Made by a program: the position numbers and the translations under genes | Shown here: piece after piece, positions 22,796 to 43,248 of the stretch | Numbering within the stretch: the stretch's first letter is position 1 | How the letters are laid out: every line of letters starts with the position of its first letter | Notes under the pieces: model-generated | Told to the model about the DNA's origin: nothing | Database searches by the model: none | What the model saw: the letters and a program-made list of their open reading frames with translations, nothing else | Source: an uncultured Bacilli bacterium | GTDB lineage: Bacteria > Bacillota_I > Bacilli_A > RF39 > UBA660 | Assembly: GCA_934129945.1 (NCBI GenBank) | Contig: CAKOXC010000002.1 | Coordinates: 53,747 to 117,746, forward strand | Length of the DNA stretch: 64,000 nucleotides | Direction: 5' to 3'

Positions 22796-24694
22796 TTACT
22801 TTGTAAGAACTAGGCGAAGTCCAATGCCACCATCGGCACCACCAGTGTGATGAATGAAGGAGAACTGACCCGCAAGTACACCATTGCCGTAACGGCCGCC
22901 TCGATGGAACCAAGAGTACGAAGAATTGGCAAAGTAAGAATTGTCAGCATACCAACCATTGTGTGGGCGATTATTACTATCTGCATCTTGATAATAATAA
23001 AATGGTCCCATCTCTCCTGTTGCATCTCCTAAGATTCTCTTACTATATGTTGTCCAATCACTATTTGCATCATATTCATCATAATATTTAGAATTGTATG
23101 ATTTTAATGATGAACTATCAAATCCTGAATCCTTATACGTTTCACTTCTAAGTGATGCCATATACTCCAAAGCTCCACCGCTCATATCATATATTCCTGT
23201 TATATTTCCTGTTGTACTTGCTTTATATCCTGTACTTGTATTATATGGTAAAGTTACACTTGCATCTGTTCCATAGGTTCCGGGGACTTTGGTTTGATCA
23301 GCACTATCTGTTGCTGCATATCCTGTTATGTAATTTGAATTATTATTTATTCTAACTTCAGTATTTATTCCATATTTTGAATGAGATAGATATGCTACTG
23401 CTCCCCATTCTGTATTTTTCATCATATGTGAGTCATTATCTCTTTTATAATTATATGCTGTTTCAAACATTGTTTTTACATTTATATTTCTTAATGATGT
23501 TTGATTTGGTTTTACTGTTATATTTGCTGTACTTCCGGTTGTTTCAAATTTTGCTACCCATAATCCATTTGTATTCATTGAAATAAATGCAGGTGAAGTC
23601 ATATAATCTCCAACCTTACAATTACCACTTGCTCCACTTGTCATTGGTGTTGTACATTCTCCATTATTTGAATCATTTGTATTTGTTGTGCCAAATTTTA
23701 TTTGAATTTCTTTTGCATTACTTGTCGTTGGCTTACTAGATGTATACCCATCAGTTTCACCTAAATTAAATATTTGATATGAATATTTTGGTATCCATAC
23801 AAAGTATGATTCAATATTATCTTCTGGTATTGTATCCCCATTATTATATATTTTAGAACTATCTGCTAAAATAACTGCATTGGCCCATTTCTTATCTTCA
23901 TATTTATACCACTCTATATTAGTATCTGCCTTTGTTACTGTTCCATCATCAGCTATTGCTACTGGTATTAAATTATCACTTAATACTGGATCTGTTCCAT
24001 TAAGTAATGCTTCTTTGTATTCAGCTTTAACGCTAGAATCAGTACTACTTGTTACTATTACTTTACCAGTAAATGATTTACCCATAGTTGATAAATCTTC
24101 AACACTTTCATCCATCCAAACATATAGTTTATATGTCTTTGACTGTCCTTTTGATACTACAGAACTATTATCACTATTCATAGTAGCTTTTGTTAGACTT
24201 CCACTAGTTAATATATATGAATTTAATATATTGTAAGTATTATTATTTTCATCAGTATAAGTATAATTATTATATTCATCATATTTTTTTGTACTTCCTA
24301 TTATCTTAGGACCTACTGTGTTGCCTTTTTCGTCAACCAGTTTGTAATCAAGATAATTATCTAAATCACTACTTCCAGTAGTGTTTAATGTTACATTATA
24401 ATACATATCAATTGAACAATTATTAGTTATTGTAAAAGTATATGGGGTATTTTTCATTGCATCAGTTTCGCTCATCGGATAAGTATTTGTTAAATTAATT
24501 GGATTTTCATCAGTTAATTCAAAAGAAAAACATCCACTTTTTATTTTATTAGTTGATTTTTGAGCATAATTTTTTTGCCAATATGCATAAGATACACCTG
24601 TAAATATTACCATAATAAATATAAATGCTAAAACTCCGATTAATGTTATTGGTAATATATTATCTTTATTAAATTTTAAATTTATTTTTTTCAT
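22796..24694 (-). CDS. Ser/Thr/Asn-rich membrane-anchored surface protein with C-terminal FGE-sulfatase (SUMF1/DUF323)-like domain
   Basis: N-terminal TM (ILPITLIGVLAFIFIMVIF). C-terminal motifs GIYDMSGGALEYMAS, HRGGRYGNGVLAGQF, GIGLRLVL resemble the FGE fold (DMxGNVWEW, RGGSW, GFRC). Start is one of three consecutive ATGs at 24694-24700 after SD AGAAGG. The 3' ~250 nt are strikingly GC-rich. Confidence 0.5.
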   Translation of the reverse strand: MKKINLKFNKDNILPITLIGVLAFIFIMVIFTGVSYAYWQKNYAQKSTNKIKSGCFSFELTDENPINLTNTYPMSETDAMKNTPYTFTITNNCSIDMYYNVTLNTTGSSDLDNYLDYKLVDEKGNTVGPKIIGSTKKYDEYNNYTYTDENNNTYNILNSYILTSGSLTKATMNSDNSSVVSKGQSKTYKLYVWMDESVEDLSTMGKSFTGKVIVTSSTDSSVKAEYKEALLNGTDPVLSDNLIPVAIADDGTVTKADTNIEWYKYEDKKWANAVILADSSKIYNNGDTIPEDNIESYFVWIPKYSYQIFNLGETDGYTSSKPTTSNAKEIQIKFGTTNTNDSNNGECTTPMTSGASGNCKVGDYMTSPAFISMNTNGLWVAKFETTGSTANITVKPNQTSLRNINVKTMFETAYNYKRDNDSHMMKNTEWGAVAYLSHSKYGINTEVRINNNSNYITGYAATDSADQTKVPGTYGTDASVTLPYNTSTGYKASTTGNITGIYDMSGGALEYMASLRSETYKDSGFDSSSLKSYNSKYYDEYDANSDWTTYSKRILGDATGEMGPFYYYQDADSNNRPHNGWYADNSYFANSSYSWFHRGGRYGNGVLAGQFSFIHHTGGADGGIGLRLVLTK

Positions 24695-26966: not shown

Positions 26967-27051
26967 TATATATCTTCCTTTCTATAAATATCTTGTATAA
27001 TCATAAAAATATATTTCAGCGGATTATATGTGCTTTTTAACAAGCAAATGT

Positions 27052-27080
27052 ATTATATCAAATAAACTTTGAAAATGCAA
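27052..27080 (-). promoter_or_regulatory. sigma-A promoter for rplS: TTGCAT-17-TATAAT
   Basis: -35 at 27075-27080 and -10 at 27052-27057 on the minus strand. ~80-nt leader may correspond to an L19 ribosomal leader. Confidence 0.5.
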
Positions 27081-27096
27081 ATAGATATTTTAAAAT
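27069..27096 (+). promoter_or_regulatory. sigma-A-like promoter TTGAAA-16-TAAAAT on plus strand, back-to-back with rplS promoter
   Basis: Hexamers at 27069-27074 and 27091-27096. Drives the short plus-strand transcript ending at terminator 27179-27214. Confidence 0.4.
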
Positions 27097-27103
27097 TGCA
27101 TTA

Positions 27104-27214
27104 CAATAAAGTTTATGTTATTATTAATTTAGTGAGAAGCAGATTTCTTTAGGGAATGATGCTAACCACATGGGTTATGCATCTTTATTCAGTCAGAATA
27201 AAGATGCTTTTTTT
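27104..27214 (+). ncRNA. candidate ~110-nt small RNA delimited by promoter and strong terminator; convergent with small hydrophobic peptide gene
   Basis: No convincing ORF (longest about 22 codons without SD). Ends 1 nt from the stop codon of minus-strand peptide ORF. Confidence 0.35.
27179..27214 (+). terminator. strong intrinsic terminator: 12-bp stem GCATCTTTATTC/GAATAAAGATGC, 5-nt loop, T7
   Basis: Read directly. Confidence 0.7.
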
Positions 27215-27215
27215 A

Positions 27216-27308
27216 TTATACTAATATAAATATCAATTTATAAATTATATATAATAATATGATTATTAAGATAAATAATCCGAAGATTAAAAAATCTTTT
27301 TTAGTCAT
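27216..27308 (-). CDS. 30-aa hydrophobic peptide MTKKDFLIFGLFILIIILLYIIYKLIFILV (candidate type I toxin-like / small membrane peptide)
   Basis: Strong SD AAAGGAAGTGA 6-9 nt upstream of ATG. Consensus promoter TTGAAA-16-TATAAT about 95 nt upstream. Not in the ORF track (too short). Confidence 0.45.
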   Translation of the reverse strand: MTKKDFLIFGLFILIIILLYIIYKLIFILV

Positions 27309-27400
27309 ATATAATCACTTCCTTTACTACTTTTAAACCCCCTGAATTAAATCCCTAGATAAGAAAGTGATTAGCATCTTTTTCTGCTTCTCGAAAATGT

Positions 27401-27428
27401 ATTATATAGTAATTTTTTGATATTTCAA
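27401..27428 (-). promoter_or_regulatory. sigma-A consensus promoter TTGAAA-16-TATAAT for small peptide mRNA
   Basis: -35 at 27423-27428, -10 at 27401-27406 on the minus strand. Confidence 0.5.
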
Positions 27429-27465
27429 GGCTTTCGACAAATACTGACAAATGTTTTATTAAAAC

Positions 27466-27492
27466 ATTAAAAAATTAGCAATTTTTGCTAAT
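27466..27492 (-). terminator. intrinsic terminator after orf120: ATTAGCAA-aaa-TTGCTAAT + T6
   Basis: Read on the minus strand immediately after the stop at 27493. A second perfect palindrome AATGTTTTATTAAAACATT lies at 27449-27467. Confidence 0.6.
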
Positions 27493-27855
27493 TTATCTTC
27501 CAATTGTTTTTGAATCATATATTTCTTTTAATTGAAGTTTATTATTTGAAATACCAATTTTATTTAAATAAGAATTAAAATTATAATCATCAATTTTTTC
27601 AAACTTATTTTTTGAATTTAAATCTATTAACAGATATTCATCAATATTTTCTTTAATATCTATTAATATAAAATAATAATCATTAATTCCATATAGATCT
27701 AATGTATTTATTATTTTATTATCAATTCCTGCCATATTTAAATCCATAGACATTCTTTTATAAATATCTTTTGGCTCTTTGCTTAAGTCATTCCTAAATT
27801 GTATTTCTTGTAAAACCTTATTAACAACCATTTCAATTATCAAAACATTATTCAT
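27493..27855 (-). CDS. hypothetical protein (120 aa) inserted between trmD and rplS
   Basis: No recognisable domain. Overlaps upstream orf151 stop by 1 nt (coupled). Confidence 0.45.
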   Translation of the reverse strand: MNNVLIIEMVVNKVLQEIQFRNDLSKEPKDIYKRMSMDLNMAGIDNKIINTLDLYGINDYYFILIDIKENIDEYLLIDLNSKNKFEKIDDYNFNSYLNKIGISNNKLQLKEIYDSKTIGR

Positions 27856-28310
27856 TATCTTCCTCTTCCTTTCTTCTCTTCAACTTCAAAATTTTCTTCT
27901 ATATTATTTAAAGTATTTATGTAAACTATCTTTGCTCTAAGTTCATTTTCTAAAATTCTTAAACTTTTTATATATTTCTTTTCTTTTTCTTTTTCTAAAA
28001 ACTTTTGATATTTATTTAAAATAATAGAGCGTAATTTAGCTATTTCATCAAGTGCTATTGTAGCATCAGTAGAAGTATTATCATCATCGCTATTTATAAC
28101 ATCATAAGTTATAGCTGCTAATCTTTTAAAATTTTTATCTATTTTTTTTGATAATATTATATCAATCATAGAATGATTAAAGATAGTTATCTTATTTATA
28201 TCTGCATCTGTATGAGTAATTCTTGGCCTAAAATCATACCCATCATTATTAATACTCAATTTAACAATATCAATTTCTTCATCATGTTTTTTTATTAAAA
28301 AACTAGACAT
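27855..28310 (-). CDS. hypothetical protein (151 aa) immediately downstream of trmD
   Basis: Starts 9 nt after trmD stop. Acidic; no recognisable domain. Confidence 0.45.
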   Translation of the reverse strand: MSSFLIKKHDEEIDIVKLSINNDGYDFRPRITHTDADINKITIFNHSMIDIILSKKIDKNFKRLAAITYDVINSDDDNTSTDATIALDEIAKLRSIILNKYQKFLEKEKEKKYIKSLRILENELRAKIVYINTLNNIEENFEVEEKKGRGR

Positions 28311-42707: not shown

Positions 42708-42735
42708 AAAATATGAGAAAATAATCTCATATTTT

Positions 42736-43248
42736 TTATTTTGCTAAAACTAATCGAAGACCAATGCTGCTGCCAGCACCACCAGTGATATAAATGAAGC
42801 CGAACTGACCTGCAAGCACACCATTGTCGGAAGTGCCGCCTCGACCGAACCAAGGGTAAGAAGAATCGGCAAAGTTAGAATTGTCATCGTACCAATTATT
42901 ATGTATTCTTGTTTTACTATCGGTATCCTGATAGTAATACAAAGGTCCCATTTCTCCTGTTGCATCTCCTAAAATTCTCTTACTATAAGTAGTTTCAGCA
43001 CTTGAACTATTATATTCGTCATAGTATTTTGAATTGTATGCTTTTAATGATGAATTATCAAATTCAGAACTTCCATATGTTTTACTTCGAAGAGATGCCA
43101 TATATTCCCAAGTTCCACCACTCATATCATAAATTCCTGTGATATTTCCTGTTGTACTTGCTTTATATCCTGTGGTTGTATTATATGGTAAAGTTACACT
43201 TGCATCAGATCCAGCTTCTCCAGGGTATTTACTTATTTTTAGAATCAA
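42736..43248 (-). pseudogene. truncated paralog (C-terminal 160 aa) of the FGE-domain surface protein, fused into the 3' end of dtd
   Basis: About 80% nt identity to 22796-23290. Homology begins at PG..G.DASVTLPYN. The ORF's first 8 codons overlap the dtd 3' end in another frame. GC-rich like the parental 3' end. Confidence 0.55.

Follow-up and report, generated by a model that had tools for sequence, protein, structure and literature searches.

A candidate chromosomal type I toxin-antitoxin module with predicted 5'-3' mRNA closure upstream of rplS in an uncultured gut lineage of Bacilli

What is encoded in the cassette of some 350 nt that stands directly upstream of the ribosomal protein gene rplS in an uncultured Bacilli bacterium? 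The question arises from a 64-kb stretch of GenBank contig CAKOXC010000002.1 (assembly GCA_934129945.1; hereafter the window, with positions counted from its first letter), for which an initial annotation described the gene of a 30-amino-acid (30-aa) hydrophobic peptide converging with a short plus-strand transcript and compared the pair with type I toxin-antitoxin systems. Our sequence analysis supports that interpretation, with corrections on the role of the sequence modules shared by the two genes, on the promoter of the small RNA (sRNA) and on the extent of the overlap. The cassette is probably a chromosomal type I toxin-antitoxin module, and it is best read as a new family within the known type I class. 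The sequence elements, their conservation and covariation and the patchy, duplicated distribution are observed; both transcripts, the read-through, the toxicity of the peptide and the direction and mechanism of sRNA action are inferred.

The candidate toxin gene is a minus-strand open reading frame (ORF; 27216..27308), and its translation, MTKKDFLIFGLFILIIILLYIIYKLIFILV, confirmed the 30-aa peptide. With a mean hydropathy (GRAVY) of 2.18, this is the only ORF on either strand of the window to combine a length of 18-70 aa, a GRAVY above 1.8 and a Shine-Dalgarno (SD) match of at least 7/9. The promoter assigned to it at the outset also held: TTGAAA-16-TATAAT (27401..27428, minus strand) is an 11/12 match and the top promoter of a 4-kb scan, with transcription expected to start near 27394. 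Just upstream of its -35 box stands a direct repeat that is unique in the window (ATTTGTC-N3-ATTTGTC, 27436..27452, minus strand), a candidate operator that would imply regulated transcription of the toxin. Among about 15 loci of the same species, in which the cassette is 97-99% identical, the ORF is open in all full-length copies aligned, with four synonymous changes and the substitutions T2S, F9L, V30I and F12Y, the last in a locus (L052) described below. No gene caller has annotated this ORF.

Folding and a covariance model delineate a structured 5' untranslated region (5'UTR) of 86 nt (27309..27394, minus strand), close to the ~90 nt first estimated, that contains a long SD. The sequence of this SD, AAAGGAAGTGAT at 27314-27325, has no other exact copy in the 64 kb, and the surrounding region (AAAGGAAGUGAUU, 27313..27325, minus strand) is fully paired in the predicted structure. 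There, an upstream anti-SD arm (AAUCACUUUCUU, 27361..27372, minus strand) forms a 12-bp helix with the SD strand AAGGAAGUGAUU (27324-27313), and the predicted probability that the SD is unpaired is 0.03. The apical part of the inner 5'UTR hairpin, AAUUCAGGGGGUUU (27335..27348, minus strand), is invariant between paralogs of the cassette while its flanks diverge; it is possibly a standby or pseudo-SD site. Its run of five Gs is unusual for a genome of 25% GC, the window as a whole having ~25%.

Database searches agreed with the first impression that the sequences belong to no known family. The exact peptide sequence is not on record, phmmer returned 0 matches among 1.84 billion representative proteins, and neither this peptide nor the 35-aa peptide of the paralog matched a family in Pfam, NCBIfam (both at E up to 10) or PHROGs. 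Rfam gave only a tRNA for the whole window at gathering thresholds, and only noise for both cassettes at E up to 10 (Rfam 15).

On the opposite strand, converging on the peptide gene, lies an intrinsic terminator (27179..27214, plus strand) with a perfect 12-bp stem (27179-27207), a 5-nt loop and a run of seven Ts to 27214, 1 nt from the peptide stop codon (27216-18), exactly as initially reported. Three terminator-like sites were found in the scanned region versus 0.4 expected, and 11/12 stem pairs of this one were counted across variants. There is no plus-strand gene upstream for the hairpin to terminate. Viewed from the minus strand, it is preceded by A7 and followed by AUAACCC, with no U-run; since the T-run is on the plus strand alone, the hairpin should terminate only plus-strand transcripts. 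The 4-kb scan likewise found no minus-strand terminator between the peptide stop codon and rplS, which upholds the earlier remark that the peptide gene lacks one of its own, and read-through of the peptide mRNA into the antisense region is therefore expected.

The plus-strand promoter proposed by the initial annotation, TTGAAA-16-TAAAAT (27069..27096), is a 10/12 match, but it lies inside the rplS promoter region, promoter-like matches occur at chance level in this AT-rich DNA (36 found vs 33 expected), both of its hexamers are weakened in locus L007 (8/12), and it has no counterpart in the paralog, L054. The sRNA promoter is probably instead a conserved one read from the sequence, TTGCAT-17-TGtTATTAT (27096..27124, plus strand), with the TG-extended -10 element TGTTATTAT at 27116-27124; a promoter scan of L054 found its equivalent, TTGACC-18-TATTAT with a TG extension. 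It puts the transcription start near 27131, so that the candidate antitoxin would be a predicted sRNA of ~84 nt (27131..27214, plus strand), not the ~110 nt first suggested (~111 nt if the start were 27104). The sRNA strand carries no conserved ORF, the frame being 22 aa in the window and, by hand translation, ~8 aa in L054. The whole sRNA (84 bp) is complementary to the 3' stretch that read-through would add to the peptide mRNA, and both ORF and SD lie outside the overlap; because the complementarity lies only in that stretch, it depends on where the mRNA ends.

The sRNA gene contains a hypervariable patch of 13 nt (27166..27178) with at least four alleles in strains that are otherwise 97-99% identical. 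In each of them a GAUGC...GCAUC hairpin (-7.5 to -12.6 kcal/mol) is retained, overlapping the terminator's 5' arm. This predicted hairpin competes with the full terminator stem and could give the sRNA an alternative fold resembling an anti-terminator.

Three modules recur in the two genes, as the initial annotation had noticed: A (GAGAAGCAGA, 27134-43 and 27383-92), B (GATGCTAAYCAC, 27158-69 and 27367-78) and C (TAGGGAWT, 27150-57 and 27350-57, read directly from the sequence). Their order differs, being A-B-C in the mRNA 5' end and A-C-B in the sRNA. They do not provide for pairing between sRNA and mRNA of the Fst/RNAII type, because they are inverted repeats in the DNA and hence have the same sense in both RNAs. 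Our modelling instead makes them the arms of a predicted intramolecular 5'-3' pairing of the mRNA, conditional on read-through. The 5' arm of helix A (GAGAAGCAGA, 27383..27392, minus strand) would pair with 27134-27143, and that of helix B (GAUGCUAAUCAC, 27367..27378, minus strand), the 3' half of which is shared with the anti-SD arm, with 27158-27169. Module C (UAGGGAUU, 27350..27357, minus strand) is complementary to 27150-27157 of the same RNA, and since this pairing crosses helix B, it would require a pseudoknot or alternative states. The 3' arms on the read-through mRNA (27134..27169, minus strand), namely GUGGUUAGCAUC at 27158-69, AUUCCCUA at 27150-57 and UCUGCUUCUC at 27134-43, are the antisense of the sRNA body. 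A third copy of GAGAAGCAGA (31504) is part of a coding region and has nothing to do with the cassette.

Energy calculations are consistent with this long-distance pairing. A 295-nt read-through RNA folds with GAGAAGCAGA against UCUGCUUCUC and GAUGC against GCAUC (z = -6.4), and the first 60 nt of the mRNA form a duplex of -35.5 kcal/mol with 27100-27178 (minus strand), compared with -19.2 +/- 3.4 kcal/mol in dinucleotide shuffles (0/1000 as low). Co-folding of the mRNA 5' end with the downstream region gave a free-energy gain (ddG) of -22.8 versus -5.6 +/- 2.6 in shuffles, so the 5' end, over roughly its first 45 nt, is complementary to the message's own read-through 3' region. The corresponding duplex in L054 reaches -36.1 kcal/mol (1/1000 and 0/1000 shuffles as low), and the cognate arms of the two cassettes (-35.5 and -36.1 kcal/mol) pair 6-10 kcal/mol better than swapped arms (-26.3 and -29.4 kcal/mol). 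Pairing in trans between the 5' part of the sRNA and the SD/AUG region is at chance level (-21.0 kcal/mol vs a shuffle mean of -21.7), and we reject an SprA1AS- or Fst-style interaction on that ground.

What carries the case beyond layout is the paralog together with covariation. L054 was found by following the upstream gene of L052 (OJMO01000477.1, 375-739), and its cassette has 75% identity with the window copy; nfeD/band-7 genes flank it on one side and, on the other, a 69-aa ORF that lies downstream of ileS. The homologous stretch (L054:4236-4623, by nhmmer and pairwise alignment) delimits the whole cassette in the window to 27112..27464 (~350 nt, minus strand). L054 has the same toxin promoter (11/12) and an ORF for a 35-aa hydrophobic peptide (MNKNDYIISRLFIIIFIQLFIIIALFVKILVITFK), with SD and AUG placed as in the window with respect to the leader structure; after the ORF comes a hairpin that has A7 on the sense side, which keeps hairpin and T-run for the sRNA strand. 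Identity between the paralogs is 96% in the toxin promoter, 94% in the upstream repeat block and 89% in the sRNA -10 region, compared with 67% in the 5'UTR and 56% in the ORF (DNA, with indels). L052 combines the two types: its promoter, ORF and sRNA follow the window, as does its rplS promoter, whereas its 5'UTR and upstream gene follow L054; a single mismatch interrupts its helix A. Recombination between the paralogs or a chimeric assembly could account for it. A homologue of its upstream gene elsewhere (L058) has no cassette beside it.

Both sets of predicted helices are maintained across this divergence. In the long-distance helices 98.9% of cells are paired, versus 37-58% when the partner is slid. 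Three pairs are compensatory (G-C to A-U in helix A; A-U to U-A and A-U to G-C in helix B), three further pairs of helix B change on one side only, and helix A is lengthened to 13 bp in L054. Module C, read by hand, behaves in the same way: UAGGGAUU with AUUCCCUA in the window corresponds in L054 to UUUAGGGACU facing AGUCCCUAAA, 10 bp in which a U-A pair has become C-G. A covariance model built from window-type leaders finds the leaders of L054 and L052 with E = 1e-6 and 1e-5. MAFFT had put the SD arm of L054 one column out of register in the 5'UTR, and leader pairs were counted on a structure-guided alignment, in which 97.6% of cells are paired and both sides have changed in 10/26 pairs; none of 500 shuffles does as well, and slid controls yield 0-4. 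In the SD-sequestering helix itself, 5/12 pairs differ on both sides between the paralogs, and SD sequestration is kept with different arm sequences in L054 and L052.

These elements suggest how the module may work. An mRNA from the 27428-27401 promoter would encode a single-helix membrane peptide of 30 aa, the presumed toxin, and its translation would be held off by the 12-bp hairpin in which the upstream anti-SD sequesters the SD. Lacking a terminator of its own, the mRNA would read through the 27207-27179 hairpin into a 3' region whose modules would pair with the extreme 5' end and close the molecule. The convergent ~84-nt sRNA (27131-27214, plus strand), ended by its strong intrinsic terminator, would pair with that 3' region; being perfectly complementary to it, the sRNA has the same sequence as the 5' modules of the mRNA and would compete for this site with the mRNA's own 5' end. 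If the module works like bsrG/SR4 and txpA/RatA, binding would create a long duplex, lead to mRNA decay and favour the SD-sequestered fold. The last step has mixed support: when the 3' region was blocked in the model, predicted SD accessibility fell from 0.36 to 0.06 in L054, much as expected from bsrG/SR4, and no such change appeared in the window copy.

More tentatively, the antitoxin might be a competitive mimic, as the sRNA carries modules A, C and B of the mRNA 5' end and the 3' UTR thereby has two alternative partners. Without sRNA, the 3' UTR would hold the 5' end and shield it from 5'-dependent RNases, and in the paralog it would also draw the anti-SD off the SD. With sRNA bound, the 5' end would be freed, the anti-SD would lock the SD and the duplex would be degraded.

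Several points weigh against a type I module of this design. The similarity between the 30-aa and 35-aa peptides is not significant on its own, and the peptide is without the charged C-terminal tail of many type I toxins. The covariation comes in essence from two independent classes of haplotype and a single apparent hybrid (L052), and the structure-guided alignment was fitted to the structural model and hence leans towards it. Since the sRNA is clear of the ORF and SD and pairs with the initiation region in trans only at chance level, a direct block of translation is not supported. In the window copy, blocking the 3' region moved SD accessibility from 0.03 to just 0.02, closed either way, and a message that stopped at the hairpin or ahead of it would lose the long-distance pairing altogether and most of the antisense overlap. 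Finally, only one species-level lineage among 185,579 representatives carries the cassette in an exact-pattern scan, which would miss diverged copies.

Does the cassette nonetheless belong to a described type I family? According to T1TAdb, the key determinants of type I toxin mRNAs are SD/anti-SD pairing, 5' and 3' stem-loops and 5'-3' long-distance pairing, and Gram-positive families carry the antisense RNA on the 3' side (PMC8594479). Two features of the class are present: a hydrophobic peptide within ~20-60 aa on a short mRNA (PMC8594479), here 30 aa and 35 aa in the paralog, and predicted silencing of translation in cis through SD/anti-SD and 5'-3' pairing. An antisense RNA gene is a candidate: a promoter and a terminator of its own are predicted and conserved in both paralogs, but its complementarity to the toxin mRNA would depend on read-through. 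The layout appears closest to the 3'-convergent systems of Bacillus. In Bacillus subtilis, bsrG/SR4 (as also bsrE/SR5 and bsrH) joins a small hydrophobic peptide (BsrG, 38 aa) to a convergent 3'-side antisense RNA, and the SD of its toxin mRNA lies inside a double-stranded region. For bsrG/SR4, first contact is reported to occur through the antitoxin terminator loop, and binding far from the SD to lengthen the SD-sequestering helix and promote decay (PMC3834814). The cassette differs in that peptide and RNA have no sequence similarity to bsrG/SR4, in that the antisense RNA of the Bsr families also overlaps the ORF (PMC8594479) whereas ours stops 1 nt short, and in that the region targeted by our sRNA also serves as 3' arm when the mRNA pairs with its own 5' end.

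The systems txpA/RatA and yonT/SR6 of B. subtilis share with the cassette the convergent genes, the antisense overlap at the 3' end and a presumed decay of the duplex. They too are located on the chromosome, in association with mobile regions. Their toxins, of 58-59 aa, are unrelated in sequence and the ORF is part of their overlap (PMC8594479); no prophage context was seen at the cassette, and three pattern scans of viral contigs gave no match. No RatA-like match was found in the cassette with Rfam 15 at E up to 10. Thus the convergent 3'-side layout is that of TxpA/RatA, BsrG/SR4, BsrE/SR5 and YonT/SR6, but the overlap with part of the ORF that marks these families (PMC8594479) is absent, as is any similarity to them by sequence or covariance model.

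The likeness to fst/RNAII (par of pAD1) and SprA1/SprA1AS is of another kind. Here too a peptide of ~30 aa is accompanied by a 3'-side antisense RNA clear of the ORF, a 5' structure sequesters the ribosome-binding site and modules are common to both genes. However, the par modules are direct repeats (DRa/DRb) at which RNA I and RNA II are complementary, whereas those of the cassette are inverted and of the same sense, and the par terminator is bidirectional, whereas the cassette's is unidirectional. The cassette has neither a peptide matching the Fst/Ldr type in Pfam or NCBIfam nor antisense pairing with the initiation region beyond chance nor a shared bidirectional terminator. The comparison with fst/RNAII, txpA/RatA and bsrG/SR4 drawn by the initial annotation stands for the convergent, type I-like layout, but the shared modules do not mediate pairing of the Fst type and the sRNA is clear of the ORF.

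The Gram-negative systems hok/Sok and aapA1/IsoA1 resemble the cassette in that the full-length toxin mRNA is closed by a 5'-3' interaction and translationally silent (PMC8594479, PMC6733600). Provided that the message is read through, a closure of this sort is predicted for the cassette too, and covariation supports the prediction. The antisense RNAs of hok/Sok and aapA1/IsoA1 act on a 3'-processed mRNA, at its 5' leader or initiation region, whereas the sRNA of the cassette, on the 3' side, would target the 3' arm of the long-distance pairing; the peptides are unrelated (no HOK_GEF match) and the phylum is different.

Where the cassette occurs bears on what it may be. In the window it interrupts a row of minus-strand genes (rimM, trmD, a 151-aa ORF, a 120-aa ORF, the cassette, rplS, ruvA, ruvB). 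Sister lineages with RplS 93-96% identical have the same gene order without the cassette, the upstream ORF directly preceding the conserved rplS promoter and a hairpin resembling the L19 leader, and their intergenic gap is 115-155 nt versus 527 nt in the window (cassette-free sites in L008, L011, L013, L014 and L015; similarly short gaps in L027-L031). By sequence comparison, then, the cassette is a lineage-specific insertion. The sole cassette-bearing species representative is the metagenome-assembled genome RUG14121 (L007), labelled uncultured Erysipelotrichaceae, and the exact RplS protein is present on many human-gut metagenome contigs, Hadza samples among them. Pattern scans added little: one of two matches among genome contigs (L006) was a chance match inside a GC-rich kinase gene, and 20 of 21 among metagenome contigs were chance, the remaining true one being L052.

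This setting helps to weigh the best-surviving alternative, which we regard as unlikely: that the peptide is an ordinary, non-toxic small membrane protein, for instance a regulatory protein or an accessory subunit, whose expression is adjusted by a structured leader and a cis-antisense sRNA. The peptide indeed matches no toxin family, and the conserved operator-like repeat upstream of its promoter suggests regulated, purposeful expression. Strain variation is also compatible with this. In L002 (3645-3700), a contig listed for at least two samples, a 180-nt deletion (window 27287-27466) between two copies of ATTTTTTAAT has removed the promoter, 5'UTR, SD and codons to ~6, leaving the sRNA gene intact; such a deletion shows only that the gene is dispensable. 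The converse variant, with the sRNA lost and the toxin side intact, was not found among the ~15 loci, and this one-sided pattern speaks, if indirectly, for a toxin-antitoxin pair. A further seeming variant, with a new 5' region and a 29-nt deletion in the ORF (L019), is an assembly artefact, an inverted-duplication fold-back through the palindrome. However, selfish or addictive modules better fit a peptide of 30 aa that is silenced twice over at translation and faced by an antisense RNA besides. The same is true of a peptide that diverges fast (56% DNA identity) while the regulatory RNA structure is kept, and of a cassette with copies in unrelated contexts that sister lineages lack.

In a second and improbable alternative, one trans-acting protein or ligand recognises modules A, B and C on both the sRNA and the mRNA leader, with no need for read-through. 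Both RNAs would start with GAGAAGCA and can form the same AGCA...UGCU hairpin, and the differing module order (A-B-C vs A-C-B) is awkward for one nested set of helices. Against this, the copies of a module have changed together in either cassette (module A, G to A; module B, AA to UG; module C, U to C). A shared protein or ligand would not demand such paralog-specific matching, which complementarity explains directly, and Rfam gave no match to a riboswitch or protein-binding motif.

It is still harder to regard the cassette as a non-coding repeat, akin to miniature inverted-repeat transposable elements (MITE) or repetitive extragenic palindromes (REP), in which ORF, SD and promoters are accidents of AT-rich sequence. 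An insertion of ~350 nt with inverted repeats that occupies at least two genomic places and breaks assemblies would suit such a repeat, as would the chance density of promoter-like matches in this genome. But both paralogs keep an open frame, the same SD distance and a hydrophobic helix despite 44% nucleotide divergence and indels, and no other such ORF exists in the 64 kb. The inverted repeats, moreover, are internal and scrambled, not terminal, the window holds one copy, and no transposase-related feature accompanies it.

As to the assemblies, the cassette acts as an assembly-breaking repeat or palindrome: metagenome contigs end within or just ahead of it in L007, L024, L025, L055, L056 and L057, and L020 has Ns in the terminator loop.

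A leader peptide and antisense RNA attenuating read-through into the L19 gene would suit a cassette directly upstream of rplS on the same strand with no sense terminator between, but this is the least credible reading, as rplS retains its own promoter and L19-leader-like hairpin downstream of the cassette, sister lineages have both without it, and no ribosomal protein gene follows the paralog, whose downstream neighbours are nfeD/band-7 genes. That rplS expression would not change on loss of the cassette is already implied by the natural L002 deletion and by the cassette-free relatives.

Some features of the surroundings deserve mention in their own right. The region 26996-27081 (minus strand) holds the TG-extended promoter of rplS itself, TTTGCA-18-TATAAT (27081..27052), and a hairpin with a AUAAUCCGCU core that resembles the L19 leader; it reaches 16.4 bits in Rfam against a gathering score of 36, and the L19-leader-like sequence is nevertheless kept in the cassette-free sister lineages. 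Between trmD and the cassette, the 151-aa and 120-aa ORFs (27493-28310, minus strand) overlap at ATGA and have no significant family match in Pfam or NCBIfam; their operon is closed by an AT-rich hairpin with a U-run at 27472-27494. The sister-lineage counterparts have 146-152 aa, with a second ORF of 110-117 aa after them in some. Elsewhere in the window, the C-terminal ~150 aa of a predicted surface protein of 650 aa are repeated as a separate 170-aa ORF 20 kb away (22796-23252 and 42731-43192, minus strand); the domain, with motifs including YDMSGG..EYM and GLRLVL, recurs at L054:6196-6657 with 82% DNA identity.

That a gut lineage not studied so far should harbour a new type I family would not be surprising, but the support for this one is unusually good for a purely computational case. 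Type I systems are hard to find because their peptides and RNAs both evolve fast, and the 24 families in T1TAdb come from 218 bacterial species for which type I systems had been reported before (PMC8594479), so that uncultured gut lineages are not covered. If our interpretation is correct, the cassette would add a family from an uncultured, small-genome, 25%-GC lineage of the human and ruminant gut that public records label Erysipelotrichaceae or Bacilli. It would offer a testable example of a 3'-convergent system in the Gram-positive style combined with 5'-3' closure in the style of hok and AapA, the antisense target being one of the closure arms. Should the sRNA prove to be a mimic as well, this mimicry and the operator-like repeat on the toxin promoter would together make a three-state RNA switch of a kind not described for type I systems.

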